DNA of 27,656 nucleotides from an uncultured Chloroflexia bacterium. Lineage in GTDB: Bacteria > Chloroflexota > Anaerolineae > B4-G1 > SLSP01. The notes beneath the pieces are model-generated. The model had not been told where the DNA came from. It made no database searches and saw nothing but the letters and a program-made list of their open reading frames with translations. Position numbers and translations under genes: made by a program. This document shows positions 5,349 to 21,595 of this stretch, piece after piece. Numbering within the stretch: the stretch's first letter is position 1; each line of letters starts with the position of its first letter. The DNA lies in contig CAVVUS010000029.1 of NCBI GenBank assembly GCA_963751345.1, forward strand, positions 1 to 27,656. Reading direction: 5' to 3'.

Positions 5349-5360
5349 TCGGGTCGAGCA

Positions 5361-6350
5361 CTATAGATGTATCACCGCCCCGCTGTCGAGCGAGTCGATC
5401 GCGGCCTGCAACACCTTCTGCGCCGCGAGCCCATCGGCGCCGGAGGCGTCGATCTCGTCCGGCGCCGCGCCCTCTGTCACCTGTTCCAGGAACCTGTGAA
5501 TGCGGTTGCGGAAGGTGTCGTCGAAGTCGCGGTGCCCGCCGAAGACGGGATTCGTGAACTGCAGCTTGACGAAGTCGCCCGCCGGAAAGAGCGTGACCTG
5601 GCGCCACATGTCCTCCAGCACAAAGCGGCCCTTGGTGCCCGCGACCTCGCAGCGCTCCATCGGATGGCCGCGCTCGATGTCATAGGAGCCACTCAGGGTG
5701 CCCACCGCGCCGTTCTTGAACTGCATGTTGAAGGACGCCGTCGACCAGATCTTACGGCCCGGCGCCTTCGTGGCAAAGCACTGTACGGATTCGACGTCGC
5801 CGCAGAAGTGACGCATCACATCCACGGTGTGGGGATGCAATGATTTGATCATGTAGTTGGGCGAGCTCTCGTTGGGGTTCATGATCCACATCGCCATATT
5901 GATGAAGAGCAGGTGCCCGAGCCGGCCCTCGTTCTGCCACTGCTTGGCGATCTGGGCCGCCTGGGTGAAGCGGTGGTTCAGGTCGATCCCGTAACAGAGC
6001 CCCTTCTCCTTGGCCTTGGCGACCATCTCCTCGGCCTGCGGGATCTCGTTGCAGATCGGCTTCTCACCCAGTACGTGGCAGCCGGCCTCCAACACCTGCA
6101 GCGTCACCTCATAGTGATCGCTGCCGTTCTCGAAGCCGGCGGTCGCGATGCTGCAGACATCGGGCGAGAGCGCGTCGAGCATCTCTTGCGCATCGTAGAA
6201 AGCGGGCACGCCGAGGCGCGCCGCCGTCGCATCCGCGCGCTCCTTGATGATGTCGCAGACACCCACCAACTCGGCCAGCGGATCTTCTTTGTGCAGCGTC
6301 GCGTGCAGATTGCCGATCGGCCCCAGGCCGATAACGCAGGTTCGTAGCAT
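5361..6350 (-). CDS. Gfo/Idh/MocA family oxidoreductase
   Basis: MLRTCVIGLGPIGNLH, HVLGEKPI, own RBS GGGAGG before ATG 6350. Paralogue of 7197-8321 (shared G-x-ENGS-x-H segment). Confidence 0.88.
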   Translation of the reverse strand: MLRTCVIGLGPIGNLHATLHKEDPLAELVGVCDIIKERADATAARLGVPAFYDAQEMLDALSPDVCSIATAGFENGSDHYEVTLQVLEAGCHVLGEKPICNEIPQAEEMVAKAKEKGLCYGIDLNHRFTQAAQIAKQWQNEGRLGHLLFINMAMWIMNPNESSPNYMIKSLHPHTVDVMRHFCGDVESVQCFATKAPGRKIWSTASFNMQFKNGAVGTLSGSYDIERGHPMERCEVAGTKGRFVLEDMWRQVTLFPAGDFVKLQFTNPVFGGHRDFDDTFRNRIHRFLEQVTEGAAPDEIDASGADGLAAQKVLQAAIDSLDSGAVIHL

Positions 6351-6379
6351 TGTGTAGCCTCCCGGTTGTGCTACTCCAG

Positions 6380-6444
6380 ACCTTCGCAAGGTTCGAGCCC
6401 GAGTCCCGGCGCAGTTCCCGGGCTCGACCCACCTCGCGAAGGTT
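6380..6444. repeat. REP-like hairpin (ACCTTCGCAAGGTT family)
   Basis: ACCTTCGCAAGGTT-CGAGCCCG...CGGGCTCGA-CCC-ACCTCGCGAAGGTT forms a long imperfect stem between genes. Confidence 0.7.
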
Positions 6445-6445
6445 G

Positions 6446-7178
6446 TCATCCAATACCTCGGTCGGATACCCATATTGCGCCATCGCGGGCGCGAGGAAGT
6501 CGAACATCGTGTTGCCGTCGTCCCGACGCCAGCGATCCACGGCCTCCGGTCTGACCACGATCCTCGCCAAGCGGAAGCCGAGGAAGTCCTCCAGCCGCGC
6601 GAGCGTCTCATCCTGATTGAGGACGAAGTCCTCGAACCGCACCTCGATCCACTGCTCGGGCTTGGCGGTCGCGCGAACGAGGTCGTACTGGTATTTCCAC
6701 GAGATGGCCCGCCGGCGGCGCACATCCTCGGTCTCCGGGTACGCGATCCCCCACTTGGACAGATCGTCGGTGCCGTGTCTGGCCGAGGATGCAGTCGCGC
6801 GGGATTGCGCACCCAAAGGATGTACTTGGCCTCGGGGAAGAGCCGTAGGATCCACGGGAAGACGAGCGTCGTCTCCGGGATCTTCCACCCCTTGTGCTTG
6901 TCGGTGCTCTTCAGCACCGTCACGAGGTAGGTGTCGATAAGCGTCTTGAACTCATCCGGGATCTCGGCAGCATTCGCCGCATCCCAATCCCAGGTCAGGT
7001 CGCCGTGCCAGGTGACGTACTTCGCAAAGACCTTGCACGCGTCGTACATCGGCTGGGGCGGGAGCAGATCGCCGGAGCGGTTCAGCGGCTCTCCCATGAA
7101 GACGCCGCTGGTCATCAACGTGTGGGATATGGCGCGGGTCCCAGAGTGCCCGCGCCCGATGATGGTGATCAGGGACAC
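6446..7178 (-). CDS. Sulfotransferase-fold (P-loop, PAPS-binding) protein; frameshifted, 3' end approximate
   Basis: 5'-PSB-like loop IIGRGHSGTR and GWKIPE. Removing two extra bases (~6802, ~6783) restores the 3'-PB-like VRNPRDCILG, followed by VRFEDFV...LEDFLG...WRR...MAQYGY. The stop is probably TGA at 6446-6448 after another indel. Confidence 0.78.
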
Positions 7179-7196
7179 AGATTCTTCCTCCTGACC

Positions 7197-8321
7197 TCAG
7201 GCGAGCAGCCTGGGGTCGCCGTGGACCGTGGGCAGCGGGTGCGGCTGGACGAGCTCGCCACCCGACTCATAGGACTCAATCGCGGCCCAGGTATACTCCA
7301 GGGCCGCCAGGGCATCTCGCCCGGAGGCGCGGAGTTTGTCCTTCGCCACACCGTTGGTCACATCCTCCAGGAAGGCGTGGATCCGGCGCGGGAAGGTTTC
7401 TGAGAAGTCGGTGATCCCGGAGTTGGTCACGACCGGCGCGGGCGCGGCGCCCAGCACCAGGTTCTCCGGCTCCGCCGCCCCTTCAGAGCCCGGCGACGGG
7501 TAGAACGTGATTTTCTCGATGCAGTTCTCGATGCAGAAGGTGCCATGGGTGCCCGCGACCTCCACGCTCCACCACCCGCCCAGTCCAAAGGTCGCGTCGC
7601 CGCGCTGGCTCAGCAGATAGCCCACCGCCCCATTCTGGAAGCGCATATGGATGCTGTTGATCGAGAGCATCACGTCGCCGGACGACTTACGGAAGCTCGG
7701 ACGGTCCATGAAGGCCTGGACGTGGGTCACATCACCGCAGAAATAGCGCATCACACTGAAAGGATGATGCAGGAACGCCTTGACGTGGAAGTAGGGAAAG
7801 CCATCCGAGCGAGGCGCCTTCGAATACTGATACGTCCACTCTCCGCCCTGGAACCCCATTTTGTGCAAACAGTAGACGAGCTCGCCGATCTTGCCGCTGT
7901 CCATAAGCTCGCGCGCCTTCTCGGCGGGGGGCGTGAAGTAGTGATTCAGGTTGCATCCCAGATAGAGGTCGTCCTCGAAGGCCTTCTGCACCATCTGGCG
8001 CGCCTCACCGATATCATTTGAGATCGGTTTCTCGACCAGGACGTGCTTGCCTGCCTCCAACGCCTCCATTGCGGGATCGAAGTGCCAACTGCCGTTCTCG
8101 TACCCCCCCGTGGTCACGTCGACGACGTCGAGGTCCTCGTTGCGCAGCATGTCGCGCAAGCTATAGTAGGCGGGCACGCCGTACTTCTTCGCAGCGTCAT
8201 CCGCGCGCTCCTCGACGACGTCACAGACTGCGACCAGTTTCGACAGGGGATCATGTGTATGCGCCTGGGCATGGGTGTTCCCGATGCCGCGCATCCCGAC
8301 GAGACCAACTCTGAGTGCCAT
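7197..8321 (-). CDS. Gfo/Idh/MocA family oxidoreductase
   Basis: VGLVGMRGIGNTH, HVLVEKPIS, GRDALAALE. RBS AAAGGAG. Confidence 0.88.
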   Translation of the reverse strand: MALRVGLVGMRGIGNTHAQAHTHDPLSKLVAVCDVVEERADDAAKKYGVPAYYSLRDMLRNEDLDVVDVTTGGYENGSWHFDPAMEALEAGKHVLVEKPISNDIGEARQMVQKAFEDDLYLGCNLNHYFTPPAEKARELMDSGKIGELVYCLHKMGFQGGEWTYQYSKAPRSDGFPYFHVKAFLHHPFSVMRYFCGDVTHVQAFMDRPSFRKSSGDVMLSINSIHMRFQNGAVGYLLSQRGDATFGLGGWWSVEVAGTHGTFCIENCIEKITFYPSPGSEGAAEPENLVLGAAPAPVVTNSGITDFSETFPRRIHAFLEDVTNGVAKDKLRASGRDALAALEYTWAAIESYESGGELVQPHPLPTVHGDPRLLA

Positions 8322-8437
8322 CTATGTGCTCCTTTGTAGTACCTAGTATCGTTAGCCTGACGAATGACGGATGATCAGAGATCAAGGACCTTGCGAGCCG
8401 TCAGGGCCGCCTGAGCCCGGCCCGCGATCGCGGATGC

Positions 8438-9886
8438 CTATTCACCGTCCTCGGATTGCTCCGCGTCCTCATCCTCATTGCCGGCCTGCAGCTTGGCGGC
8501 CTGCTGGGGATTGCCGATGTGCAGCGTGTCGTAGGCCTGCTGGGAGGTCTTAAAGGCCCCCACCCCTTCATGGCCGTGCCAGTCGCCCTGATGATAGATC
8601 GGGTTCGGTAGACCGGTCTCCATCTCGCGCTGCGCGATCCACCGCTCCATCCGGCCCCTCAACAGGTCGACGACGCCGGGCTCCGCCTCCGCGAGGTTGT
8701 TGTCCTCGTGGGGATCCTCGACCAGGTTATAGAGCTCGACCGGTGGTTTGAAGTGGAAGTCCGGCTCCAGCGCCACGATCAGCTTCCACTCGGGCGTGCG
8801 CCAGCCGTGCTTCCTCATCCACGTGCACTCGGTGATATAGAACTCACTGCGATGCGACACGACGTCGGCGGGCCCCCGTCCGAGGGGCATCATGGGGACC
8901 AGGCTCTCCCCGTCGAAGTCGATCTCCGTCTCCAATCCAAGCAGTTCCATCATCGTCGGGACCAGGTCATAGTGCTGCGCGTAGCCCGAGATCCGCTTGC
9001 CCGCGGGCACCTTTGCCGGATAGCGGATGATCAGCGGCACGTGCAAGGTCACGTCATAGATCCCGTGGTGGTCGAACCAACACTCGTGGTCGTAAAGCGT
9101 CTCGCCGTGGTCGGCTGTGATGATGACGAGTGTCTCATCCAGGACGCCGTGGGTTGCCAAGGTGGTGAAGATCGCCTGGATCGCCGCATCCATATAGGCG
9201 ACCGCGCCGTCGTACTGGGCGATGACGTAGTCCTTGTCCGTGATCCCTTGGGGCATCCACTCGGCGAAGTAGTCGCGGAATGGCTTGAACGCCATCACCG
9301 GCTCCATCGACCTGTTCTTGGGGTCACATTCGTTGCCGTGGTAGAAGATGCGCTCGAAGGGGCCGGGCGGAAGATAGGGAGAGTGCGGGTCCATGTGACG
9401 CATGAAGAGCAAGAAGGGTTCCTTCTGCTTGACCAGTCGATCCAACTCGGGGATCGCCACCTCGTTCAGGTTCTCCGCCTTGTGCGAGCGTCCATCCTCC
9501 CCTGGCCCCCACCCGCTGAACTGAATGTAGTTGTCAAAGCCTCGCGAGGCCGGGTTCCCCTGAAATCCCACGCAGGTGCTGGTGTACCCGGCAGCATCCC
9601 GGAGAATCTCAGGCAGCGTCGCCACCTCCGGGCGCAGCGGCCCCACGTGACGCAGGGCCACGACCTGGGTGCTGAAGACATCCATACCCGTGAGCATATT
9701 GGAGTAGCCGCTGGTGGTGGGGATGTGCGGACTGTAGTAGCGCTCGAAGAGTGTCCCCTCCCGCGCGAACGCATCCATATGGGGTGTCGTCAACCGTGGG
9801 TAGCCATAGGTACTCATATGGTCCGCAAGCAGCGAGTCGATGCCGATAAACACGATATTCGGCGGTCTGCGTCTTCCTGATGGCAT
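8438..9886 (-). CDS. Sulfatase-like hydrolase (alkaline phosphatase superfamily) lacking the C/S-x-P-x-R motif
   Basis: PNIVFIGIDSL, TTPHMDAFAREG, SPHIPTTSGYSNMLTG, HMDPHSPY, YDGAVAYMD, IITADHGE, HVPLII, ELYNLVEDPHE. RBS GGAGG before ATG 9886. Confidence 0.88.
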   Translation of the reverse strand: MPSGRRRPPNIVFIGIDSLLADHMSTYGYPRLTTPHMDAFAREGTLFERYYSPHIPTTSGYSNMLTGMDVFSTQVVALRHVGPLRPEVATLPEILRDAAGYTSTCVGFQGNPASRGFDNYIQFSGWGPGEDGRSHKAENLNEVAIPELDRLVKQKEPFLLFMRHMDPHSPYLPPGPFERIFYHGNECDPKNRSMEPVMAFKPFRDYFAEWMPQGITDKDYVIAQYDGAVAYMDAAIQAIFTTLATHGVLDETLVIITADHGETLYDHECWFDHHGIYDVTLHVPLIIRYPAKVPAGKRISGYAQHYDLVPTMMELLGLETEIDFDGESLVPMMPLGRGPADVVSHRSEFYITECTWMRKHGWRTPEWKLIVALEPDFHFKPPVELYNLVEDPHEDNNLAEAEPGVVDLLRGRMERWIAQREMETGLPNPIYHQGDWHGHEGVGAFKTSQQAYDTLHIGNPQQAAKLQAGNEDEDAEQSEDGE

Positions 9887-10114
9887 AAATGTCCCTCCTA
9901 GTCTCTTAAGATGGGAATACGATACGCAGGCGTGAGATGATGCCGGGGCGCCGGGCAAGGACAACGGTATCGCACATTACAGACACACACGAAACCAGAG
10001 TGCGGTGCGGCACCCGCCTCCCGGATTGAGCATCTGACTTCATCCATTCTCCACTAAGCCTATCATGAGATTAGGACAATTGCATTAAAAAAAGTGCCCG
10101 ATAGTATAAGGAAA

Positions 10115-10142
10115 TTGCCAAATCGATCCCCAATCCTATAAT
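10115..10142 (+). promoter_or_regulatory. Sigma70-type promoter for the AraC regulator
   Basis: TTGCCA (10115-10120), 16 bp, TATAAT (10137-10142) in an AT-rich divergent intergenic region. It implies a nearly leaderless transcript for ATG 10153. Confidence 0.65.
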
Positions 10143-10152
10143 GGTGGTCACC

Positions 10153-11037
10153 ATGAACGCGCAGGACATACTCAGCGACTCATTCTTCACGGAACCGGAC
10201 CTGCCGCTCTCGCTCCGGCTCACCCATCAGACCGATCTCCGCCCCCATATGCACACCTTCATCGAGCTGGTTATGGTGGTGGGCGGCAGTGGCACTCACG
10301 TGATCCAGACCGAGTGCTGCCCGATCACGGTGGGTGACGTCTTTGTCATCCCTCCCTATACGCCGCACGGTTACACGGACACCGACGATCTGACCATCTA
10401 CAACATCCTCTTCAAGGAGCAGATGTTCCGCCGTTTCCAGGAGGAGCTGGGGCTGATCCCAGGATTTCACGGTCTGATCTACCTCGAGCCCTACTACCGT
10501 TCGGTCCGCGGTTTCGCGGGCCGGCTGACGCTCACCCCCGACCAGATCGTGCAGGCGATGTCGCTCGTCACGCGTCTGGAGCACGAATGGAACAGCCGTT
10601 ACGACGGTCGCAAGATCATGATCGAGAATCTCTTTATCGAACTGCTGCTCTTCTACTGCCGGAGGTTCTCCGTGGATGCGGGTCCCTCGACACGCGTGAT
10701 GCCGGTGGCCCGTGCCATCGGCTATATGAACCGGCATTTCGCCGAACCCCTGTGCCTGGAGGACCTGGTCACCGTCGCCAATATCTCCAAGCGCAGTCTC
10801 ATCCGTCACTTCAAGAATACGACAGGCCATTCGCCCATGCGCTATCTGCAGCGGGTCAGGGTCGCCAAAGCACGTGCGATGCTGCAGAGAGGGGACCGGT
10901 CGATCACACGGGTGGCGATGGATGCAGGCTTCAACGACCCGGCTTATTTCTCGGCTGTCTTCAGCAGGCACACGGGCGTCTCGCCCAGCCGGTACGCCGC
11001 CGTGGCGGAGCAGGGCCACCCTTCCGCGTCGATTTGA
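10153..11037 (+). CDS. AraC family transcriptional regulator (RhaR/RhaS-like cupin plus double HTH)
   Basis: HMHTFIELVMVVGGSGTH cupin and C-terminal SITRVAMDAGFNDPAYFSAVFSRHTGVSPSRY signature. ATG 10141 overlaps the -10 box, so 10153 is preferred. Confidence 0.92.
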   Translation: MNAQDILSDSFFTEPDLPLSLRLTHQTDLRPHMHTFIELVMVVGGSGTHVIQTECCPITVGDVFVIPPYTPHGYTDTDDLTIYNILFKEQMFRRFQEELGLIPGFHGLIYLEPYYRSVRGFAGRLTLTPDQIVQAMSLVTRLEHEWNSRYDGRKIMIENLFIELLLFYCRRFSVDAGPSTRVMPVARAIGYMNRHFAEPLCLEDLVTVANISKRSLIRHFKNTTGHSPMRYLQRVRVAKARAMLQRGDRSITRVAMDAGFNDPAYFSAVFSRHTGVSPSRYAAVAEQGHPSASI

Positions 11038-11087
11038 TGTCCCGTCACGCCTGGGTGCGTATCACTCTCTTGCAGCTACACCGCTTG

Positions 11088-11219
11088 TCGTAGAGACGGG
11101 CCGGTGGCCGTCTTCCGGCGTGCAGACACCACTGGACGCCGATGTGATCTTCGTCGTGAGCAACCTGGTACCGACGGTAATGCTACGTCCGGATACGGGC
11201 CACCGGCCCGTATCTACGA
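11088..11219. repeat. Inverted pair of GTAG-family REP elements between convergent genes
   Basis: TCGTAGAGACGGGCCGGTGGCCGTCTTCCGG (from 11088) and its near reverse complement CCGGATACGGGCCACCGGCCCGTATCTACGA (11189-11219). Each is a GTAG tetranucleotide followed by an imperfect hairpin. Confidence 0.78.
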
Positions 11220-11242
11220 AAGCAAGGGCCGACGCACACTCG

Positions 11243-12269
11243 TCAGGCCTCCTTCGCAGCGTTGGCCATCGCCACCAGGTTCTCCACCGAGACATTCGGC
11301 AAGAGTGCCTCGTGGCTGGGTGAGACAACATACCTAGGCCCAAAGACCTCCTTGAGCCGGCGGACTTCGGCAGTCACCTCCTCCGGCGTGCCGAAGGGCA
11401 GGAGTTGCTGGGTATCCACCCCACCGATCCAGACCAGTTCCGGGCCGTACTTGCGCACCAGGTTTTCCGCGTCCATCCCTCTGGCCAGTGCCTGAAGGGG
11501 ATGCAGACCGTCGACGCCGGCATCGATCAGCGCAGGGATCGCCTTCTCGATGGCACCGCACGAATGAAGGACCACTTTGTAACCGTAGGATTTGGCCTGC
11601 GCCGTGAACTTCACAAAGGAGGGCAACACAAACCGCCGAAAGAGCTTGGGGCTGATCAGCAGGTCCAGCTGTGTCCCGAAGTCATTGCCGAAGAAATATG
11701 CGTCCATCCCGTGCCCAACGGCAGCGAAATACCGCCGGTTTGCCTCCAGGGTAAACTCGACGACATGGTCGGTCACGGCCTCGACCACCGCCGGGTCGGT
11801 GTACATCTTGACGAAGTAGTTCTCCATCCCGAAGAAGTCGGCCACGGTATGGAAGAAGGAGCCCCACATGCCCGAGAAGACGTAGAAGCCGTGAGAACGC
11901 GCGAGCTCGATGTGAGCCAGGACCTCGGTGAAGTCCAGGTCGTCGGGGTCGGGCCAGTCGAACGCCTCGACCACGCTGACCGTAGTGGCTTCGGCGAAAA
12001 CGCCCGGCTGGCTGAGACTGGTGCGCGTTCGTCCTCCCAGAACATCGAACATCGGCCGCCCGTCGGGCTGGCTGCCAGCCCGCATCGGCGGGGATCCAGA
12101 CGAAGTCGTCGCCCAGCGCGACGGAGAGGCCCATGTCGTCCTCCACGCCGAACGCGGGGTAGTAGATGGGCGTCGAGTCGGCGTGCGGGTTGCCGTGCCA
12201 GAAGCCACAGCGATCAGCACCACCGCTGAAGATCGCCTCCATTCTTTGTCGACCGCTCATCTCACTCAT
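11243..12269 (-). CDS. Uroporphyrinogen decarboxylase / MtaA-CmuA-like family protein (frameshift near 12070)
   Basis: N-terminus MSEMSGRQRMEAIF joins after one indel to FDWPDPD, FGMENYF, GNDFGTQLDLLISP, LHSCG, GGVDTQ, VSPSHEAL. Confidence 0.85.
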
Positions 12270-12325
12270 ACCAGATTCCCCGTCGGCTACGTGCTGCGGA
12301 TCGCTGCGATCCATCCGCACGATCG

Positions 12326-14443
12326 CTACGCGACCTCGGAGTACAGATGTCTCCCGATGATGTGGGATTGATACTCGGGGCTGAGATCGACGAAATAGGC
12401 GCTCCACCCCCACACACGCACGATCAGATTGCGATGCTGCTCCGGATGAACGCGGGCGTCCAGAAGATCTTCCACCCTGACCGCGTTGAGTTGTAGCTGC
12501 TGGCAACCCAACCGCGCGAAGGCACGCACATACATGGCAACAGACCGGATCGATTCCTGATCACTGAAGACCGTGTCGGAGAGCTCTACCGTGATGGGAC
12601 CGCCATTGCAGATACGTCCATAGTCGATCTTGCTGAAGGACTGGAGGACCGAGGTCGGCCCGGAGACCCGCGCATTGTTTGCGGGCGCCAGGTTCGCACT
12701 GAAATAGTCGCCGCGCCGCCGGCCGTTGGCCGTCGCCCCCACGACAGGCTCGCGCATGCCCTCGCGTCCCCGGGCCAGCCAAACATAGTACATCGCCGAA
12801 CCTGTTCCAGGTCGTACACAGCCGCCGCGACCATTGTCCTTCACCGCCTCACAGGCGTCGGCAAAGGCGTCATAGAGCCAGACCAGCTCTCGATCCGCGG
12901 CGTCGTCGTTGTTGCCGACCTTTGGCGCCCGGTTGGACAGCCGCGCCCGCAGACGCTCCGCATCGGCGAAGTCCGTGTCCAACGCTGTGAGGAGTTCGTC
13001 GGGGGAGACGCTGCGATCCTCGAAGACACACTGCCGTACGGCGGCCAGCGAGTCGGCGCCATCGGCGGACCCGGCGCCGTGGATGCCGTAGTTGTTGTAT
13101 CGCAAACCTCTAGAGAGATCGCGCCCCTGACCGAGACACCCATCCATCAACACCGAGTAATACGGCGCGGGCGCCAGAATCAGGTTGGCATAGGCATCCG
13201 TGAGCGTGGCGACCTGGGCTCCGATGTCCGCGCGAACGCTCTCCAACACCTCATCGTATGGTCCACCGGACGCCAGCACTGCGCGGATGCCGGCATCGAC
13301 CGCCGCCGGGAAAGAGACCGCCCCGATGTTGACGACTTCCATACCCTTGCCCGGGATGATGAACTCCCAGCAGGCCGCCACCGTGAAATCGCGGGCATCC
13401 GCCAGATCGTAGCCGTGAGCGACCAACGCGGGGATGACAACCGCGTCGTTGGAGTATTGGGGGAAGCCCAGGCCCTTGCGGGTCAGGTCGGTCGCGAGTT
13501 CCAGTAGCGCCAGATCCGTGTCGGGGTTGATGCGCAAGTTGATCTTGGGGTCGATCACGTTGGTCGCCAGCGCCACCTCGAGGGCCAACCATGTCAGCCC
13601 GTTGACGCCATCGCCACCATCGGGACGCATCCCGCCCAGCGTCAGTGTCTGACCGTTGTCGCCCTGCTGGACGCCCGGATAGAGGTCGCTGTCCTTGTTC
13701 AGCGAGAGGAAGAACTCGGCAAGCAGTTCGCCGGCGCTGTCCATAGTCTCACGGCCCGCCTCGAGGTCAGCCTGAAGATAGGGCCACATATATTGATCGA
13801 AGCGACCCAGGCCCACATGGTTGTGTCCGCTGAGCCAGACCACGGCCTGCAGCAAGCGGAGCGCCTGCAGCGCTTCCCAGAACGTGCGCGCCGGCCGCGC
13901 GGGCACCTGCTGCAAGATCTCAGCAATCTCAGGGCGGTTCTGCGCAATGGCAGTATCGGCGTACCGGGCAGTCAGATCGAGGACCGCATCGATCGTCTCG
14001 ATGGCCCCATCCAGAAACGCCACAGCCTCTGCCCCCGTCCGAGGGGCGTCCTCCGCTCTCCGCTGTCGCGTTTCAAGAGCCAGCTCCCGACGCCCCAGCA
14101 ACCCTGTGGAGAGAACCATACCCCAGTCGGCGCAGATGTTGCCGATGGTGCCCAGTTCGTGTACACAGCCATCGCACTTGATCGCTTCCCACTCCGCCTT
14201 GCTATAGACGGGAGGCACCGCCGGCAGCGTCCGCGTGAAGACGATCCTCTCGTCCGGCGCGATGACCGGGAGCTCGGCCTCACACATACGCCGGGTCAGT
14301 CGTGCCGATCGCTGCATCCCGGATAGGCCAAGGGCTTCACACTCCGAGAGGACGTCGGGCGATCGTTCTTGGCGCCACCGCAGATGGTCGCCACGCCGCA
14401 CACGTTCCCGCATTCCCACCAATCGATCACTCAAACTGTACAC
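12326..14443 (-). CDS. Glycyl-radical enzyme (PFL-like family), uncharacterised type
   Basis: PARTFWEALQ, GLGRFDQYMWPY, QTLTLGG, PKINLRI, G-FPQYSND, Cys loop AACWE, PKVGNNDD, VGATANGR, QLNAV and glycyl loop NLIVRVWGWSAYFVDL. GTG start after AGGAGG. Confidence 0.92.
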   Translation of the reverse strand: MYSLSDRLVGMRERVRRGDHLRWRQERSPDVLSECEALGLSGMQRSARLTRRMCEAELPVIAPDERIVFTRTLPAVPPVYSKAEWEAIKCDGCVHELGTIGNICADWGMVLSTGLLGRRELALETRQRRAEDAPRTGAEAVAFLDGAIETIDAVLDLTARYADTAIAQNRPEIAEILQQVPARPARTFWEALQALRLLQAVVWLSGHNHVGLGRFDQYMWPYLQADLEAGRETMDSAGELLAEFFLSLNKDSDLYPGVQQGDNGQTLTLGGMRPDGGDGVNGLTWLALEVALATNVIDPKINLRINPDTDLALLELATDLTRKGLGFPQYSNDAVVIPALVAHGYDLADARDFTVAACWEFIIPGKGMEVVNIGAVSFPAAVDAGIRAVLASGGPYDEVLESVRADIGAQVATLTDAYANLILAPAPYYSVLMDGCLGQGRDLSRGLRYNNYGIHGAGSADGADSLAAVRQCVFEDRSVSPDELLTALDTDFADAERLRARLSNRAPKVGNNDDAADRELVWLYDAFADACEAVKDNGRGGCVRPGTGSAMYYVWLARGREGMREPVVGATANGRRRGDYFSANLAPANNARVSGPTSVLQSFSKIDYGRICNGGPITVELSDTVFSDQESIRSVAMYVRAFARLGCQQLQLNAVRVEDLLDARVHPEQHRNLIVRVWGWSAYFVDLSPEYQSHIIGRHLYSEVA

Positions 14444-14579
14444 GCTTGCGTCCTCCTACCAAGCCGGCACCCACCGGACAAGAGCATCCGGACAGGCGCC
14501 CTCAGCGATATCACGGGCAGACGGCCCGGAACCCAATTCACCAATGTCGACGTCGCGGGCACATCGACGAGACACGTCG

Positions 14580-14588
14580 ATTGTACCA
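14580..14588 (-). promoter_or_regulatory. Extended -10 element upstream of the glycyl-radical enzyme gene
   Basis: TGGTACAAT (TGn-TACAAT) on the minus strand about 140 bp upstream of GTG 14443; no clear -35. Confidence 0.45.
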
Positions 14589-14654
14589 CCGCGTCCTCGA
14601 TCTGCCGGTCTACCACCGCCGGATCATAGATCCGGCTCGAACATACAAAACACC

Positions 14655-14707
14655 CTTCTACACCGTTCCCGGCGGATCTGCGATCCGCGGAGAACGAACG
14701 GTAGAAG
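14655..14707 (-). terminator. Long imperfect hairpin after the GH51-like gene, possible terminator
   Basis: CTTCTAC...GCGGATC-TGC-GATCCGC...GTAGAAG stem, followed on the minus strand by GGTGTTTTGT. Confidence 0.35.
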
Positions 14708-14736
14708 CTCGGGACGCGCTACCTCTCACCAGCGGA

Positions 14737-16762
14737 TCACGCGTTTGAGGCCAGACGCAGAACGGTGAAGGAGTACCCGGGGAAGACGTGCTCCAGATCG
14801 CCGCCATCCCATGCCACCACCCGCTCCTCCGGAACGATCCGCTCGGGCGCCTCAGGCGTGTTCTCCGCATCCAGCGGTCCGGTCAGCGTGGTCACGGAGA
14901 CCTCTCCGGCGACGGGCTCTCTGCCCTGCAGTTTGAGCGTGCAGCCGACAGGCTCGGAACCCAGGTTGAGGACCTTGAGGACGACGACGTCCCCGGCCTC
15001 GCTGCGCGTCGCCACGACGTCGAGCGTGTCAGGTGCATCGAACGCCTCCGACTCCACCAGCAACGGCTGGTAGGCACGCGAGAGCATCTGTTGGGCGTAG
15101 TACGGCGGCATTCCCCAAACCTGTGAGGGTGTGAAGAAAAGCTGCCCCTGATCCCAGGCGTTATCGTTCTGCTGCCACGGCTGCAGGCAGTTGGCCGCAC
15201 TGTCCAGCGCCACCAGCCTCAGACGCTCGAAGGTCATGATGTTGTGGGCGTGGCCGAGGGCGCGCTGCAGATCGTGGCGCCCGCCGTTCTCCTCGAGCAC
15301 GCAGAGCCCGATCCGGTTGTCAGGGTCCGCCTCGTCGATCACCCGCCGGATGAGCGCGATCCCCTCCGCGGCGTCGTGGGCGTCCATCAGGTCATCCCCA
15401 TTGACGTGGACGTCCCACAGGACCTCAAACCCGCGAACCGCCTCGACGACCTTGCGGATTCGCTCGACGTTCTGCGGGTCTCGGAGCGAGCCATCGCCAT
15501 TCGCCCATAGCCCCGCGCCGAGGATCGGCACGATCGTGGGGTCCTTCTCGTGAAGGGCGGTAACGGTCGATCGGATCCGCGCGGCGTAGGCCAGATCGAC
15601 CAGGGGCGGCAGCCCCGGCCCGCGGCGCGCGTGTTCCTCGTTACCGATCTGAATGTAGCGCAGACCGAAGGGCGCCGGATGCCCGTCCCGCGCGCGCAGT
15701 GCGCCCCAGCGGCGTGTCCACCTGCCCGTTGACGTATTCGACAAAGTCGCGAAGATCCTGGATCGTCTCCATCGGGTTGAGCGTCGGCACACAGAGAAAG
15801 CCCGCAGCCTCGCAGAACGCGATGTAGTCGATGATGCCGAAGCCATTGCTGTTGTAGCGGTAGAATGTGCCCCGGTACGGGGGGCGGTCGTGTCGCGGCC
15901 CGATCATCTTCTTCCAGCGGTATCCCGAGCCAGGCACCTGCTGCTCGTGCGCCCAATCGGTGTTGATCATGTAGCCACCGTAGCGAAGAAGCGTCAGCCC
16001 CTGGTCGACGAGGGCCTCGCCGATATCCCGGCGGACCGGCAGTCCGTGGAACCGTCCCCACGGACCGGGTTCGAGACGGACGTAGTCGACCCACACCGTA
16101 GCGGGTGCGCTCAGCAGAACCTCAAACTGCGCAATCTCACCGCTGTCAGTGCCGCCGGTGGTATCGATGGCGTACGACAGGACGTGCCATTGCCCATCCG
16201 CGGGCACGTGCACCACCGTCTCGCCAAAGGCGACGGTATCGGCCGTATCTGTGACGAGAGCAAGGCGCAGGTGGACGGCAACCGTGGCATCCGGGTCGCG
16301 ATCAGGCATTTCTGCCGCGGCAACCAATGTCCCCTCATACCGGCGACCGGCGACAACGTGCAGCCCCCACCGGTTAAGCCCCCGGTTCTCGATGCCGACC
16401 TCGCCGTCGCCGCCGGCAAACTCGATCCGTTGGCTGCGCACCCCGCGCCGCGCCCGCAGTTGGGTGGCCTTAAGTCGTCCCCGTGCGGTGCCGCGCCGGA
16501 AGGGCTGCCAGGAGCGGATCTCGGAGCTGGTCCGAAGGTGCTCGCGCTCCGCCAGACAGCTCACCGTGCCCTCAAGGCCCTCGAAAGCAGGGACCAGATC
16601 GGGCCGGATGTCCATCGGCTCTTCTTCAAAACTCTCACCAAAGATCATCTGGCTGTAGATCCCGCCGTAGACCTCGTGGTTCACATCCTCCAGACAGGCC
16701 CCCGTCAGATAGCGGGATATCGTCCCGAGGACACGTTCGGGATAGACGTCAATTGTGATCAA
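14737..16762 (-). CDS. GH51-like alpha-L-arabinofuranosidase family protein (frameshift near 15710)
   Basis: TTG start after AAGGAG; EDVNHEVYGGIYSQMIFGESFEE, LLRYGG, WKKMIGP..DRP. Removing one base gives TPWGALRARDGHPAPFGLRYIQIGNEE (acid/base motif). C-terminal beta-sandwich ends FPGYSFTVLRL. No signal peptide. Confidence 0.85.
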
Positions 16763-16780
16763 CTGTTTCTCCTTGACGTG

Positions 16781-16841
16781 AGACCTTTGGGGTTTCCTGT
16801 CTCTTGAAGACACTTGCTTGAGAGGGAAACCCCAAAGGTCT
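16781..16841. repeat. REP-like hairpin AGACCTTTGGGGTTTC...GAAACCCCAAAGGTCT
   Basis: Perfect 16-bp arms, identical to the arms at 5290-5348. Confidence 0.8.
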
Positions 16842-16845
16842 TCCC

Positions 16846-17850
16846 GTACGTTGCCGCCTTGCGGCAGTACTCCTCGAATAACCTGACGTAGATGCGGTAT
16901 TCCTCCAGCGACACCTCGGGCGGTGTCTGGTGATCGACCGACGGTATGTAGCCGCCGGAGCGCATCACGGGCAGGAGCCGCTCGAACTCGGCGCGCATCG
17001 CTGCCTCGCTGCGGAACATCACCATCTTGTCGTAGCCCCCCATCATCAGGAACTCGGGATAGTCGCGGCGGATCTTCGCGATGTCGACGCCAGCCTGACG
17101 CTCCAGCGGATAGACGCCCTCAATGCCGGCGTCCAGCATCCAGGGGATCATCTTGCTGATGTCGCCATCGCTGTCGATCAGCACCTTGACCCCGTAATCC
17201 TTGATGTGCGGGAGCACACGGCGGTAGTAGGGCAGCAGAAAGGTGTCAAAGGCGCCGCGGGAGAGCATCGGGCCGTGGTTGTAGGACATGTCCTCCCCGA
17301 ACCCCACCATGTCCGGGCGCAGCACGGGGAAGAGCGCCTCGACGGCCCTAATGCAGAAGTCGGCCAGGTCACTGTTCATCCGGTGCATCAGCGCGGGTTG
17401 GTCGTAGAAAGCGTAGAAGTGCGGCTCGATCCCGAAGAGCGTCCGCGGGAACCAGAAGAACCCGTCCAGCCATAGGCGGAGTATAACCTCGCCCCGTTCG
17501 TGCTTGGCCTTGAGAGCGCGAGCGGCGTGGATCGCATCCTCAATGATGGCATCCGTGTAGAGGTAGGGCAGGATCGCCTCGTAGGACGCCTCGTCAGTGA
17601 TGATCGGGCCGCCGTGGGTGGTGGGGCCGGGGCAGCCCGCCCCGCGCGCACCGGCGTTGATCAGGAGCATCGGATCGAGGCCGAAGTAGGTCTGCGACGC
17701 CTCGTGGTCCATCCCAACGGGCAATCCCTCACCCTCCCACCGCTGGATCGTCTTGTCCCACCACGGCGCCCACTCCACCATCGGCAGCCGGTCGGCGGGC
17801 CGGCGGAAGTTGAGGACGTCAAGGAAGCGCTGTCGAGGCGTCATCGTCAC
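16846..17850 (-). CDS. URO-D-like family protein, copy A (stop apparently lost by a 1-nt deletion; reads on to 16759)
   Basis: MTPRQRF, EDMSYNHGPMLS, IDSDG, GGYDK, GGYIPSVDH. I count 10 amino-acid differences from 19289-20293. The TAA of copy B reads TAC here. Confidence 0.85.
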
Positions 17851-18850
17851 ACGTATCGCCCATACCGATGCGCCGCTTCATACATCGCGACGACGTTCTC
17901 GGTGGGCGAGTTATCCTGAATCTGGTGGGTGGGCGAGAGCGCGTAGCCGCCGCCGGGCATCATCACTTCCAGCGTCTGCGCGTACATTCGCCACGACCTC
18001 CTCCACGGTTCCGTAGGCCAACGGACCGGCGGTCGAGATGCAGCCGTGAAAGGCCAGCCGGTCGCCATAGCGCGACTTGAGATAGGCCGGCGCCATGTCC
18101 TTTGCCTCCGGCTGCAGCGTATCGACGACGCTCGATCCCAATCTCGATGAAGTCGTCGAAAGCCCAACTGCTGGAGCCGCAGGAGTGGATGGCCACGGGG
18201 ATGCCGAACGACTCGCCCAGCGCCGCGAACTTGCGGTGCCAGGGCTTGATGTGCTTGCGATAGAGCCGCGGGCTGATCAGAGGGCCGCGCTGCGTGCCGA
18301 GGTCGTCGCCGAGCCACAAGACGTCGATGCGTCCCTTCGCCGACCTCCAATGTGCGCCGGGTGACCTCTAGCAGGATGTTGCTCTTGCGCTCGACATAGC
18401 GCAGAAAGACCGGATCATCGGTGATCAGATCGACCATCACCTGCTCCATGTTGCGGATCATCCCCGTGGCGTTGATCACGTCGGGCAGCCCTGCATTGCC
18501 CGCGACGATGCCGTAGCCGCGCCATCGATCGCAGGCCGTGACCACGGCGTCGTAGTCGTAGTCGTCGGGTGAGGGCATCGGCCAGGCCTCGACCTCCTCC
18601 AGCGTGGCGTCGCGGAGGGGAAAATCGCAGTAGTCCCAGTACCCGCCGGATTCGTGTTCGACGTACCGCGTGCGCACGCCCCAGCAGGGATCGACGTGGC
18701 GATCGGGCACCTCGGGGTGCAGCCGCGGCCCAACGTAAGGCGCGACCGACCGACCTGAAGTCAACGCCGAGGGCCTGGCGCAGCCCTTCGTCGTCGGTCG
18801 CCCCCAGGCCGAAGTGAGCCTTCAGCCGCGCGTCGATACCCGGATTGGAG
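17847..18850 (-). pseudogene. 5'-truncated, frameshifted copy of the URO-D-like gene at 20290-21375
   Basis: Lacks the first ~29 codons. Single-base insertions relative to copy B at ~17979, ~18133, ~18341 and ~18744. Confidence 0.75.
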
Positions 18851-18854
18851 CTTT

Positions 18855-19203
18855 CGGCAAACTCGATCCGTTGGCTGCGCACCCCGCGCCGAGCCCGCAG
18901 TTGGGTGGCCTTAAGTCGTCCCCGTGCGGTGCCGCGCCGGAAGGGCTGCCAGGAGCGGATCTCGGAGCTGGTCCGAAGGTGCTCGCGCTCCGCCAGACAG
19001 CTCACCGTGCCCTCAAGGCCCTCGAAAGCAGGAACCAGGTCGGGCCGGATGTCCATCGGCTCTTCTTCAAAACTCTCACCAAAGATCATCTGGCTGTAGA
19101 TCCCGCCGTAGACCTCGTGGTTCACATCCTCCAGACAGGCCCCCGTCAGATAGCGGGATATCGTCCCGAGGACACGTTCGGGATAGACGTCAATCGTGAC
19201 CAA
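18855..19203 (-). pseudogene. 5' fragment (~116 codons) of the GH51-like gene, fused in frame to the truncated URO-D-like gene
   Basis: Near-identical to 16414-16762 and keeps the AAGGAG RBS and TTG start. Ends at the duplication junction (...QRIEFA-ES-SNPGIDARLK). Confidence 0.8.
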
Positions 19204-19222
19204 TCGGTTTCTCCTTACCGTG

Positions 19223-19283
19223 AGACCTTTGGAGTTTCCTGGCCCTAGCAGACACTTGCTTGAGCAGGAAACCCCAAAGGTCT
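19223..19283. repeat. REP-like hairpin (duplicated copy)
   Basis: AGACCTTTGGAGTTTC...GAAACCCCAAAGGTCT, one arm mismatch. Confidence 0.78.
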
Positions 19284-19288
19284 TCCCG

Positions 19289-20293
19289 TTATGTGGCCGC
19301 CTTGCGACAGTACGTCTCGAAGAGCTCAACGTAGGTGCGGTATTCCTCCAACGACACCTCGGGTGGTGTCTGGTGATCGACTGACGGAATGTAGCCGCCG
19401 GAGCGCATCACGGGCAGGAGACGGTCGAACTCGGCGCGCATCGCCGCCTCGCTCCGGAACATCACCATCTTGTCGTAGCCCCCCATCATCAGGAACTCGG
19501 GATAGTCACGGCGGATCTTCGCGATGTCGACGCCAGCCTGGCGCTCCAGCGGGTAGACGCCCTCGATCCCGGCGTCCAGCATCCAGGGGATCATCTTGCT
19601 GATGTCGCCATCGCTGTCGATCAGCACCTTGACCCCGTAATCCTTGATGTGCGGGAGAACACGCCGGTAGTAGGGCAGCAGAAAGGTGTCAAAGGCGCCG
19701 CGGGAGAGCATCGGGCCGTGGTTGTAGGACATGTCCTCCCCGAACCCCACCATGTCCGGGCACAGCACGGGGAAGAGCGCCTCGACGGCCCTGACGCAGA
19801 AGTCGGCCAGGTCACTGTTCATCCGGTGCATCAGCGCGGGTTGGTCGTAGAAAGCGTAGAAGTGCGGCTCGATGCCGAAGAGCGTCCGCGGGAACCAGAA
19901 GAAGCCGTCCAGCCAGAGGCGGAGTATAACCTCGCCCCGCTCGTGCTTGGCCTTGAGAGCGCGAGCGGCGTGGATCGCGTCCTCAATGATAGCATCCGTG
20001 TAGAGATAGGGCAGGATCGCCTCGTAGGACGCCTCGTCAGTGACGATCGGGCCGCCGTGGGTGGTGGGGCCGGGGCAGCCCGCCCCGCGCGCGCCGGCGT
20101 TGATCAGGAGCATCGGATCGAGGCCGAAGTAGGTCTGCGACGCCTCGTGGTCCATCCCAACGGGCAATCCCTCACCCTCCCACCGCCGGGTCGTCTTATC
20201 CCACCACGGCGCCCACTCCACCATCGGCAGCCGGTCGGCGGGCCGGCGGAAATGAAGGACGTCGAGAAAGCGCTGTCGAGGCGTCATCGTCAC
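19289..20293 (-). CDS. URO-D-like family protein (DSDG type), copy B
   Basis: Intact 334 aa; EDMSYNHGPMLS, IDSDG, GGYDK, PSVDHQTPP. Start overlaps the upstream stop (GTGA). Confidence 0.88.
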   Translation of the reverse strand: MTMTPRQRFLDVLHFRRPADRLPMVEWAPWWDKTTRRWEGEGLPVGMDHEASQTYFGLDPMLLINAGARGAGCPGPTTHGGPIVTDEASYEAILPYLYTDAIIEDAIHAARALKAKHERGEVILRLWLDGFFWFPRTLFGIEPHFYAFYDQPALMHRMNSDLADFCVRAVEALFPVLCPDMVGFGEDMSYNHGPMLSRGAFDTFLLPYYRRVLPHIKDYGVKVLIDSDGDISKMIPWMLDAGIEGVYPLERQAGVDIAKIRRDYPEFLMMGGYDKMVMFRSEAAMRAEFDRLLPVMRSGGYIPSVDHQTPPEVSLEEYRTYVELFETYCRKAAT

Positions 20294-21375
20294 ACGTATC
20301 GCCCGTACCGATGCGCCGCTTCATACATCGCGACAACGTTCTCGGTGGGCGAATTGTCCTGGATCTGGTGGGTCGGCGAGAGCGCGTAGCCGCCGCCGGG
20401 CATCATCACCTCTAGCGTGTGGCGCACGTCTGTCACCACCTCGTCCACGGTGCCGTAGGCCAGCGGGCCGGCGGTCGAGATGCAGCCGTGAAAGGCCAGC
20501 CGGTCGCCATACCGCGACTTGAGATAAGCCGGCGCCATGTCCTTTGCCTCCGGCTGCAGCGTGTCAACGACGCTGATGCCAATCTCGATGAAATCGTCGA
20601 AGGCCCAACTGCTGGAGCCACAGGAATGGATGGCGACCGGAATGCCGAAGGAGGTACCCAGCGCTGCGAACTTGCGGTGCCACGGCTTGATGTGCTTGCG
20701 GTAGAGTCGCGGGCTGATCAGGGGGCCGCGCTGCGTGCCAAGGTCATCGCCGAGCCACAACACGTCGATGCGTCCCTTCGCGATCTCCAATGTGCGCCGG
20801 GTGACCTCCAGCAGGATGTTGCTCTTGCGCTCGACATAGCGCAGAAAGACCGGATCATCGGTGATCAGATCGACCATCACCTGCTCCATGTCGCGGATCA
20901 TCCCGGTGGCATTGATCACGTCGGGCAGCCCTGCATTCCCCGCGACGATGCCATAGCCGCGCCATCGATCGCAGGCCGTGACCACAGCGTCGTAGTCGTA
21001 GTCGTCGGGTGAGGGCATCGGCCAGGCCTCGACCTCCTCCAGCGTGGCGTCGCGGAGGGGAAAATCGCAGTAGTCCCAGTACCCCCCGGATTCGTGTTCG
21101 ACGTACCGCGTGCGCACGCCCCAGCAGGGATCGACCTGACGATCGGGCACCTCGGGGTGCAGCCGCGGTCCGGCATAGGGTGCTCCCACCGACCTGAAGT
21201 CCACGCCGAGGGCCTGTCGCAGCCCCTCGTCATCGGTAGCGTCCAGGTCGAAGTGCGTCTTCAGCCGCGCGTCGATACCCGGATTGGAGTAGTAGTTGAT
21301 CGGCACGCGGTCCGGCTCCTGTCGCGCAAACGCGGTCAGCACGCGCTCCCTCGATGTCATCGTCTGCCTTGCCAT
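20290..21375 (-). CDS. URO-D / MtaA-like family protein (HSCG type)
   Basis: MTSRERVLTAFARQEPDRVP, GDDLGTQRGPLISP, IHSCG, LQPEA, FHGCIST, GGYALSPTHQIQ. RBS GGAGG before ATG 21375. Confidence 0.9.
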   Translation of the reverse strand: MARQTMTSRERVLTAFARQEPDRVPINYYSNPGIDARLKTHFDLDATDDEGLRQALGVDFRSVGAPYAGPRLHPEVPDRQVDPCWGVRTRYVEHESGGYWDYCDFPLRDATLEEVEAWPMPSPDDYDYDAVVTACDRWRGYGIVAGNAGLPDVINATGMIRDMEQVMVDLITDDPVFLRYVERKSNILLEVTRRTLEIAKGRIDVLWLGDDLGTQRGPLISPRLYRKHIKPWHRKFAALGTSFGIPVAIHSCGSSSWAFDDFIEIGISVVDTLQPEAKDMAPAYLKSRYGDRLAFHGCISTAGPLAYGTVDEVVTDVRHTLEVMMPGGGYALSPTHQIQDNSPTENVVAMYEAAHRYGRYV

Positions 21376-21595
21376 AGGTCGACCTCCATGCCTCATTGTA
21401 GAACAGCGTAGTGGTATCACGGTTTGTCGGGATTGCCAACACCCGCCGAAACTGCGCCGACCAAGGTCGATGATCCGGACACCAACACCGTGGGGGCACA
21501 CGCATACCCGCAGCGGGATCGGCGAGAGCGGTGACAGTCCGGACGGCGGCGGCCATCGTGACACCGCGCCGTCTTGGGATTGCGTCGTCTCGGAA

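Follow-up and report, generated by a model that had tools for sequence, protein, structure and literature searches.

Which reaction is catalysed by a glycyl radical enzyme (GRE) of 705 amino acids encoded among the sugar-catabolism genes of an uncultured Chloroflexia bacterium is the question raised by the locus described here. The DNA is a stretch of 27,656 nucleotides (contig CAVVUS010000029.1 of assembly GCA_963751345.1; hereafter the window, meaning the whole stretch analysed), and the gene lies between positions 12,326 and 14,443 on its minus strand. It is proposed, with a probability of roughly 0.58, that the product of this gene is functional and belongs to an uncharacterised compact clade of GREs, and that it would act on a sugar or polyol in the manner of the GRE 1,2-eliminases and isomerases. 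The initial annotation of this DNA, made from its letters alone, had postulated an undescribed anaerobic radical dehydration or C-O/C-S lyase step on a sugar or polyol derivative; of that proposal, a sugar-directed C-O lyase or dehydratase is retained as the most reasonable reading. The following elements of the gene carry the argument:

12326..14443, minus strand: open reading frame (ORF) of the compact GRE, 705 aa, no internal stop, GTG start at 14443
14451..14457, minus strand: Shine-Dalgarno sequence AGGAGGA, 7 nt 5' of the GTG start, read from the sequence
14138..14140, minus strand: Asn102, in the column of His164 of B12-independent glycerol dehydratase (GD), His156 of PflD and His165 of YbiW (HMMER alignment to 1r8w; MAFFT)
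13361..13378, minus strand: Cys loop AACWEF, within the longer string VAACWEFIIPG; Cys358 at 13370-13372 and Glu360 at 13364-13366
12401..12418, minus strand: glycyl radical loop RVWGWS, within IVRVWGWSAYF; Gly679 at 12407-12409

Translation of the minus strand reproduced exactly the length of 705 aa, the single Cys in AACWEF and the RVWGWS loop that had been read from this DNA before. The frame is open although the adjoining genes carry frame changes, it is preceded by a strong ribosome-binding site, and short-read contigs of other sequencing runs match pieces of it with 0-8 differences and no gaps. No promoter-like site was returned by a scan of positions 11000-15000 (0 sites) and no riboswitch by an Rfam scan of the whole window at gathering thresholds (0 matches). 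At the protein level both Pfam domains expected of a GRE were detected, PFL-like (PF02901, 1.4e-92, 311.9 bits, cut-off 24.3) and Gly_radical (PF01228, 6.3e-18, 65.7 bits, cut-off 22.2). The Cys loop contains one Cys only (Cys358), with Glu360 two residues on, and aligns with the GCVE loops of PflD, YbiW and GD, while the Gly679 loop, 27 residues from the C-terminus, aligns with RVAGYS of the same three enzymes and conforms to the pattern RVxG[FYW] found near the C-terminus around the radical Gly. The triplet C358-W359-E360 likewise conforms to the CxE motif given for GRE 1,2-eliminases and isomerases in sections 5.6 and 5.7 of a recent review (Imrich et al., 2026; PMC13450708).

Within this branch the protein could not be placed in any known class. 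Among solved structures the best sequence match is Escherichia coli PflD (8yjo, 3.1e-76), followed by GD (1r8w, 2.3e-70). The scores obtained with NCBIfam models of individual classes are nevertheless far under the cut-offs: 243 bits against 1100 for HypD, 235 against 1050 for CutC, 237 against 1000 for HpsG, 230 against 1000 for HpfG, 282 against 1109 for PflD-type enzymes (PRK09983), 322.2 against 678.2 for the broad PFL2/glycerol dehydratase subfamily (TIGR01774), 168 against 1100 for indoleacetate decarboxylase and 134 against 1150 for 4-hydroxyphenylacetate decarboxylase. Pyruvate formate-lyase proper is still more distant (TIGR01255, 41.9 bits against 994.2), its structure being a remote match (2.4e-08) and AACWEF having no Cys-Cys pair. 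Since CxE is kept and every equivalog score falls far short, the protein is predicted to be a genuine GRE of the CxE (eliminase/isomerase) branch that belongs to none of the described classes. Two earlier suggestions are upheld in this way, namely that the C-x-E arrangement marks an eliminase-type enzyme and that the enzyme fits no characterised class; the sections consulted of the review by Imrich et al. (PMC13450708), which list six C-O eliminases, CutC, three C-S lyases and three isomerases and point out that whole GRE clades remain untested, contain no such class either. Literature searches returned no paper on a compact GRE clade with the CWE and RVWGW motifs.

The protein belongs to a large family. 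A word-indexed search, in which 7998 candidates were scored, yielded 6120 homologues at E <= 1e-10; the best 120 measure 650-769 aa, mostly 695-705 aa, and are 63-98% identical to the window GRE. When the query is counted with these, AACWE[FY]..PG is found in 118 of 121 sequences and RVWGWS in 119. An exhaustive search of 50%-identity representatives gave 1597 matches at E <= 1e-30, and in a set made up of the query and 31 near-full-length representatives (~35-50% identity) CWE is present in 30 of the 32 sequences, R[VI]WGW in 25 and RVWGF in five. This conservation across close family members indicates that the two Trp motifs are not due to chance. None of 65 more distant 50%-identity representatives reaches any NCBIfam equivalog cut-off. 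In a FastTree phylogeny with E. coli PflD and YbiW, the only characterised GREs included, as root, the compact enzymes and an RVWGF sister group are split from this outgroup with a support of 1.0, and the window GRE is sister (0.986) to that of locus L020, from an Anaerolineae metagenome-assembled genome (MAG). Judged from these sequences, GREs of ~700 aa form a large monophyletic and so far uncharacterised clade. Relatives are encoded at no fewer than 575 places (contigs, one genome per species) in Chloroflexota, Planctomycetota, Acidobacteriota, Verrucomicrobiota and other phyla. In two full-length relatives from the set of 32 sequences, P0154 and P0159, the catalytic Cys and the radical Gly are both lost, and these may be non-radical descendants.

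An AlphaFold2 model built from 19 family sequences (pTM 0.84, mean pLDDT 77) supports the ten-stranded alpha/beta barrel fold predicted for the protein, with Foldseek query TM-scores (TMq) of 0.71-0.82 to more than 30 GRE structures; among these, GD, propanediol dehydratase (PD), PflD and CutC score 0.77-0.82 and none stands out. Compared with PflD and YbiW (sequences from NC_000913.3), the compact enzymes lack ~60-80 N-terminal residues and have an added segment at ~557-575 in the alignment. The Cys and Gly loops are invariant in the 19-sequence family alignment, and so is Asn102 (19/19), which also occurs in the sister-clade sequences displayed. This residue stands where the GD/PD/HypD-type dehydratases and PflD/YbiW have their general-acid His, and in GD it is His164 that donates a proton to the leaving hydroxyl (Imrich et al., 2026, section 5.6.1; PMC13450708). 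The replacement of the general acid by an invariant Asn suggests that the leaving group, or the way in which it is protonated, differs from that of the known dehydratases and of PflD/YbiW.

Information on the substrate comes from the gene neighbourhoods, which were analysed for the best 80 of the loci encoding relatives, that is, 46 from Chloroflexota, 7 from Planctomycetota, 11 from Acidobacteriota, 10 from Verrucomicrobiota/Kiritimatiellota/Lentisphaerota and 6 from other groups or unclassified MAGs. ORFs were called, six genes on each side of the GRE were clustered and cluster representatives were annotated with Pfam and NCBIfam; L059, where the ORF of the GRE had been missed, was left out of the clustering (hence 79 loci) and included in the tallies obtained with hidden Markov models (HMMs), for which all six frames of the DNA flanking each GRE were searched in all 80 loci. 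A radical S-adenosylmethionine protein of 251 aa is directly adjacent to the GRE in 63 of 79 loci and present in the flanking DNA of 70 of 80. It scores 220 bits with the activase model TIGR02494 (cut-off 174) and is without the usual ferredoxin insert, and it is referred to here as the minimal activase. Seven of the ten loci without it are broken by a contig end beside the GRE, and the other three (L020, L021 and L080) are flanked on both sides.

Sugar genes recur among the other neighbours. A CUT2-type sugar-binding protein was detected in 37 of the 80 loci and a CUT2-type permease in 34, arabinofuranosidases (GH127 or GH51-like, one mixed cluster) and FGGY kinases in 19 each, zinc-dependent alcohol dehydrogenases (Zn-ADH) in 18, araA in 15, class II aldolase-fold genes in 14, sugar transporters of the major facilitator superfamily (MFS) and M24 prolidase-like genes in 8 each, and short-chain dehydrogenases/reductases (SDR) in 6. 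At L057 the arabinose genes exceed equivalog or subfamily cut-offs (araA, 838 bits against 622; ribulokinase, 777 against 428; L-ribulose-5-phosphate 4-epimerase, 322 against 251). A galactokinase-like GHMP kinase lies directly 3' of the GRE, or two genes on, in four Chloroflexota loci (L019, L029, L045, L061), a hint that some lineages may include a galactose- or arabinose-1-kinase step; a mutarotase is fused to GH127 in L025 and stands alone in L037, and RhaT-like genes also occur among the neighbours. No phosphotransferase system (PTS) was seen in these neighbourhoods. The architecture differs between phyla: three URO-D-like genes (uroporphyrinogen decarboxylase family), a corrinoid protein, the activase, the GRE, araA, M24, Zn-ADH, ribulokinase and araD, separated by gaps of 11-82 bp, in Chloroflexota; a regulator, an ATP-binding cassette (ABC) transporter, the activase, the GRE and arabinofuranosidases in Planctomycetota and Verrucomicrobiota; and arabinofuranosidase, SDR, Zn-ADH, MFS transporter, GRE and activase in Acidobacteriota. 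The family-wide partners of the GRE are, then, the minimal activase, sugar transporters, arabinofuranosidases and araA/araB/araD, and URO-D is not among them. Import by ABC or MFS transporters, the mutarotases and the fact that no PTS was seen make a neutral sugar or polyol without a phosphate group the probable substrate.

From the fold, the catalytic residues, the clade and the gene neighbourhoods we infer the substrate class, the type of reaction and activation in trans, and the following mechanism can be hypothesized, modelled on the common route of CxE enzymes as presented in sections 5.6-5.7 of the review (PMC13450708). An activase would install the radical on Gly679, from where it would move to Cys358. 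The window encodes no activase of its own and the assembly no minimal one, so activation in trans would be needed, presumably by one of three activases encoded on other contigs of the host. The neighbouring glycosidases would free the substrate, a neutral sugar or sugar alcohol of the L-arabinose, D-galactose or L-fucose type, and the thiyl radical of Cys358 would then abstract a hydrogen from one of its carbons that carries a hydroxyl. Glu360 would deprotonate the hydroxyl of this carbon, and the resulting ketyl radical would expel the substituent on the adjacent carbon by heterolytic C-O scission, which may amount to dehydration, ring opening or ether cleavage. After return of the hydrogen from Cys358 to the product radical, a deoxy-keto sugar would be released and passed to the Zn-ADH, SDR or GFO-type dehydrogenases encoded nearby.

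The immediate surroundings of the gene in the window include the following features:

11243..12269, minus strand: URO-D-like gene A (motif HSCG), starting 56 bp after the GRE stop; frame change at ~12072-12079; PF01208, 81.7 bits
14737..16756, minus strand: GH51-like alpha-L-arabinofuranosidase gene, directly 5' of the GRE (Alpha-L-AF_C, ASD1_dom); frame change at ~15706-15709; its two frames match the L017 orthologue
16759..17850, minus strand: URO-D-like gene B (motif DSDG where A and D have HSCG), 97% identity with C
17868..18873, minus strand: broken second copy of URO-D-like gene D, in five frame pieces
18859..19197, minus strand: duplicated 5' fragment of the arabinofuranosidase gene
19289..20293, minus strand: URO-D-like gene C (motif DSDG)
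20290..21411, minus strand: URO-D-like gene D (motif HSCG); the longest ORF extends to 21861, homology begins at ~21411
16414..21296: tandem duplication of a 2.44-kb unit, copies 16414-18855 and 18855-21296, 89-99% identical with small indels

The duplicated unit contains URO-D D and URO-D C/B along with the 5' part of the arabinofuranosidase gene, and the window in all contains four URO-D-like genes counted as intact and a broken one (PF01208, 81.7 bits for A and 56.9, 57.1 and 58.3 for the others; gathering cut-off 23.9). The rest of the island encodes a sulfatase, five GFO/IDH/MocA oxidoreductases, two xylose-isomerase-like TIM barrels, a DUF2961 protein, a pectate-lyase-like beta-helix protein, rhamnonate-dehydratase-like and fuconolactonase-like proteins and an AraC regulator. 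The glycosidase, sulfatase, oxidoreductase and TIM-barrel genes found with Pfam and NCBIfam bear out the description of the locus as a sugar-catabolism island, and the URO-D-like gene noticed 56 bp downstream of the GRE was recovered with PF01208, its start at 12269 being set by the L020 orthologue, to which gene A is 80% and 74% identical in its two frames.

Window and L020 are syntenic over a long stretch, including positions 1-11000 and 23201-25636 of the window. In L020 the order is URO-D, an MR/MLE dehydratase, URO-D D, URO-D C, GRE, GH29 fucosidase, URO-D A and sulfatase, followed by GFO, a sulfotransferase-like gene, GFO, GFO, TIM barrel and GFO. The fucosidase is thus directly downstream of the GRE in L020, and the GH51-like gene directly upstream of it in the window. 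Taken together, the syntenic genes suggest an island for a sulfated, deoxyhexose-containing glycan. A window ORF at 5361-7178 seems to fuse sulfotransferase-like and GFO parts that are separate genes in L020.

As regards the host, probably a member of the Anaerolineae to judge from the nearest loci, its assembly (5.40 Mb in 49 contigs, 93% complete, 5.6% contamination) contains 12 GRE loci, three full-length activases of the long type and 40 URO-D-like loci. The eleven GREs other than that of the window are on contigs C11, C14, C19, C21, C26, C30, C31, C35, C37, C43 and C49. Of these, the C26 enzyme is a canonical hydroxyproline dehydratase (a partial frame that covers 561 of 784 model positions with 1002.7 bits) and the C43 enzyme is PflD-like; the remaining ones fit no equivalog and several are apparently split between frames. 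A single full-length corrinoid protein of the MtaC type was detected (C10:214887-215501), beside a URO-D-thioredoxin fusion and a CobW-like gene, together with a weak partial match to a B12 domain on C14. With 40 URO-D loci and one full-length corrinoid protein, it is improbable that most of the URO-D proteins are each paired with a corrinoid protein of the classical kind. Contig C24 carries, at 48086-52450 (L121:4086-8450), an operon-like arrangement of URO-D, an activase and a GH95 fucosidase that has no neighbouring GRE, and this activase is a candidate trans-activator of the window GRE.

Several observations weigh against the proposed function. No activase was detected in the 27.6-kb window (Pfam/NCBIfam, six-frame HMM search), nor was the minimal form of 251 aa detected on any contig of the assembly, which is 93% complete. 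The structural model is poor in the family-specific loops (pLDDT below 50 at 92-104, the segment that includes Asn102, and at 254-264 and 557-591). The position of Ser282 of GD is a gap in the alignment and Asp447 of GD is in a loop absent from the compact enzyme; with the change of His to Asn102, this means that simple diol-dehydratase chemistry is not a given. The variation of the neighbourhoods between phyla would allow for several substrates, and the three frame-shifted adjoining genes, one of them a broken duplicate, could mean that the locus is decaying. Finally, none of the classes treated in the sections consulted of the review by Imrich et al. (PMC13450708) resembles the compact clade.

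The role of the URO-D genes, which the initial annotation had regarded as coupled to the GRE, gives rise to a first alternative: radical de-O-alkylation, in which the GRE would cleave a sugar ether (e.g., O-methyl), the ketyl radical expelling methanol or an alkoxide of another kind, and URO-D and corrinoid proteins would handle the alkyl group. In its general form, the compact GREs would be anaerobic radical ether lyases for decorated sugars, directed to O-alkyl or non-glycosidic ether links on arabinose, galactose or fucose residues, with the URO-D (and corrinoid) proteins of Anaerolineae as alkyl-handling partners. Such a role would be attractive in so far as hydrolases are unable to cut ethers and the missing general-acid His suggests a leaving group of an unusual kind. 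Across the family, URO-D-like ORFs occur within 10 kb of the GRE in 30 of the 80 loci, distributed as 28/46 in Chloroflexota, 1/7 in Planctomycetota, 0/11 in Acidobacteriota, 1/10 in Verrucomicrobiota/Kiritimatiellota/Lentisphaerota and 0/6 in other groups. In 21 of the 80, all from Chloroflexota, a B12-binding corrinoid protein is present as well, and these loci make up most of a 20-member GRE clade (support 0.99) with the tight operon described above, which contains three distinct URO-D paralogues and one MtgC/MtbC-like corrinoid protein. A conserved protein of 395 aa with no Pfam match is encoded between the corrinoid protein and the activase in L028, L039 (8023-9210) and L040.

Identity between the window URO-D genes and the three operonic paralogues is no more than 25-34%. 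Since the subfamilies of the window and L020 differ from those of the operons, the association must have arisen at least twice, and this separate recruitment speaks in favour of alkyl handling. The same holds for the host genome, where a URO-D gene stands directly beside 4 of the 12 GRE loci (overlapping the GRE on C11, abutting it on C21, in the window on C29, and on C30 in the order activase, GRE, URO-D with a 49-bp gap) and beside the orphan activase of C24. All of these URO-D genes exceed the Pfam cut-off; they share only 20-30% identity with one another, and the GREs next to them belong to different, uncharacterised types. Of 20000 random placements of the 12 GRE loci, 7 put at least four of them no further than 500 bp from a URO-D gene, a figure that overstates the significance because even placement is presumed and both families cluster in glycan islands. 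The sequence motifs are also suggestive, as HSCG, followed further on by xPxH, is found in A, D and the operonic paralogues U1 and U3; the corresponding letters are DSDG in B and C and HTDG in U2. We take His-x-Cys...Cys to be the zinc site of MtaA-type enzymes; A and D have HSCG, but the column of the third ligand is occupied by His.

On the other hand, URO-D is absent at 50 of the 80 loci, nearly all of those outside Chloroflexota included, and therefore cannot be indispensable to the reaction of the GRE. There is no corrinoid protein in the window, and the ratio of 40 URO-D loci to one full-length corrinoid protein in the host points the same way. URO-D neighbours score 57-71 bits with the MtaA/CmuA models (cut-offs 235-244), those of the window 16.6-57.1 bits with TIGR01463 (cut-off 235.4), and neither a tetrahydrofolate methyltransferase nor a reductive activase was seen in the URO-D/corrinoid/GRE operons. 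De-O-alkylation by the compact GREs is therefore considered unlikely, and the same doubt attaches to its general form as a sugar ether lyase system. As to the coupling itself, the part that stands is that it is operonic and conserved in the 20-member Chloroflexota clade; the idea of URO-D as a defining partner does not. URO-D is a lineage-specific partner of the GRE, and the link is not accidental, being operonic, separately recruited and recurrent at three other, unrelated GRE loci of the host. The URO-D-like protein may, as the initial annotation conjectured, supply or remove the substrate of the GRE.

A second alternative is that the window GRE is a relic which has lost its activase and operon partners and is not activated even though its frame is open. 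The missing activase agrees with this, as do the frame changes in URO-D A and in the arabinofuranosidase gene and the breakage of the duplicated URO-D D copy. The arrangement without activase is, however, kept in L020, where the 4.7 kb on the upstream side of the GRE and the 10 kb on its downstream side contain none, and the catalytic residues and the ribosome-binding site are intact. Three activases, one of them with no adjacent GRE, would be available in trans. The frame changes themselves may be of limited value as evidence of decay: a base at 15709 is absent in short-read contigs of two other public runs that are 95-99% alike, so that the frame change in the arabinofuranosidase gene may be an assembly error or strain-specific, and many other genes of the assembly likewise appear split between frames; the site in URO-D A (11976-12169) is not covered by read contigs. 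Such short contigs, 95-100% identical to parts of 11200-17000, were obtained from runs described as soil metagenome (2024) and salt marsh metagenome (2019). The DNA runs with matches share only 0.06-0.13 of the sampled words, no RNA run is among the matches listed, and this patchy cover is only a hint at the habitat of close relatives. Based on these considerations, an inactive relic appears improbable.

A third possibility is that the compact enzyme is a short isofunctional form of the B12-independent dehydratases of small diols and that its substrate (1,2-propanediol, ethylene glycol or glycerol) arises at the end of fucose, rhamnose or pentose breakdown. In its favour, GD and PD rank first among the structural matches and close to first among the sequence matches, the GRE of L020 and the orphan activase of C24 each have a fucosidase gene as neighbour, and the bulky Trp on both loops could shrink the pocket. 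These points are outweighed by the Asn in place of His164, the gap at Ser282 and the missing Asp447 loop, by the accompanying araA/araB/araD route, which gives xylulose-5-phosphate and no diol, by the lack of microcompartment shell or aldehyde dehydrogenase genes among the neighbour clusters scanned and by the TIGR01774 score (322 bits against 678), and a function as small-diol dehydratase is regarded as decidedly improbable. Least of all is a second hydroxyproline dehydratase to be expected, serving arabinosylated hydroxyproline-rich plant glycoproteins from which GH127 would free arabinose and M24 hydroxyproline: both genes do occur in the family neighbourhoods, yet the HypD score is low (243 bits against 1100), the adjacent transporters are of sugar type, Asn102 replaces the His that HypD presumably carries at the position equivalent to GD His164, and the canonical HypD on C26 argues against such a role. 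The probability given neither to the preferred reading nor to these four alternatives is left to other chemistry.

GREs perform some of the chemically hardest steps of anaerobic metabolism, and newly assigned classes have opened the pathways of choline, hydroxyproline, sulfonates and anhydro-sugars. The compact clade is among the larger unassigned ones, with relatives in at least 575 species genomes from the phyla that chiefly break down polysaccharides in soils, peat, sediments and groundwater. L-Arabinose is among the most abundant plant sugars, and to our knowledge its catabolism needs no radical step, so the assignment of a substrate would reveal an unrecognised anoxic route in the turnover of plant and algal cell walls. 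New radical chemistry for this unassigned, sugar-linked enzyme is plausible. The recurrent pairing with an expanded and also unassigned URO-D family (40 loci in the host) offers a second handle on function and, if the ether-lyase proposal were true, the two together would constitute an oxygen-free counterpart of the P450 sugar demethylases. New in this work are the invariant Asn in place of the general-acid His, the inventory of 12 GREs, 40 URO-D loci and one full-length corrinoid protein in a single genome, and the presence of URO-D at 4 of these 12 GREs.

Known systems resemble the compact GREs and their neighbours to different degrees. The Chloroflexota operons have the same composition as the gene clusters of Kountz & Balskus (with Mlp1-3), a likeness in gene content; those authors tie their clusters tentatively to the metabolism of methyl-sulfur or methyl-selenide compounds, and a text search of that source gave 0 occurrences each for glycyl radical enzymes and for sugars. 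With MtaA/CmuA-type proteins the URO-D neighbours have the URO-D fold in common and differ from them by the low scores given above. HypD, CutC, IslA, HpsG and HpfG share the fold and the CxE logic with the compact enzyme, as far as the consulted parts of the review describe them, while the equivalog scores set it apart from HypD, CutC, HpsG and HpfG, and the host has a true HypD elsewhere. As to GD and PD (1R8W, 5I2G), GD is the top Foldseek match (1r8w, 4.5e-38, TMq 0.77), and CxE and the Gly loop are common to both, with differences in length (705 aa against 787 aa), in the three positions already mentioned and in context, which is sugar import and arabinose genes in one case and a diol pathway in the other. 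PflD and YbiW (PDB 8YJO, 8ID0, 8ID7) are the GRE isomerases of anhydroglycolysis, which act as C-O lyases on 1,5-anhydromannitol-6-phosphate and 1,5-anhydroglucitol-6-phosphate. Identity in Foldseek is ~24-26%, the compact enzyme has CWE and RVWGW where PflD and YbiW have CVE and RVAGY, it has Asn102 for their His156 and His165, and its loci have ABC or MFS sugar import and are without PTS or phosphosugar genes. Nevertheless, the CxE and Gly loops align, the model reaches a TMq of 0.77-0.79 to PflD, both systems belong to sugar metabolism, and the mechanism outlined for PflD/YbiW in section 5.7 of the review (PMC13450708), a ketyl radical followed by C-O scission, is the one that the compact GREs would share.

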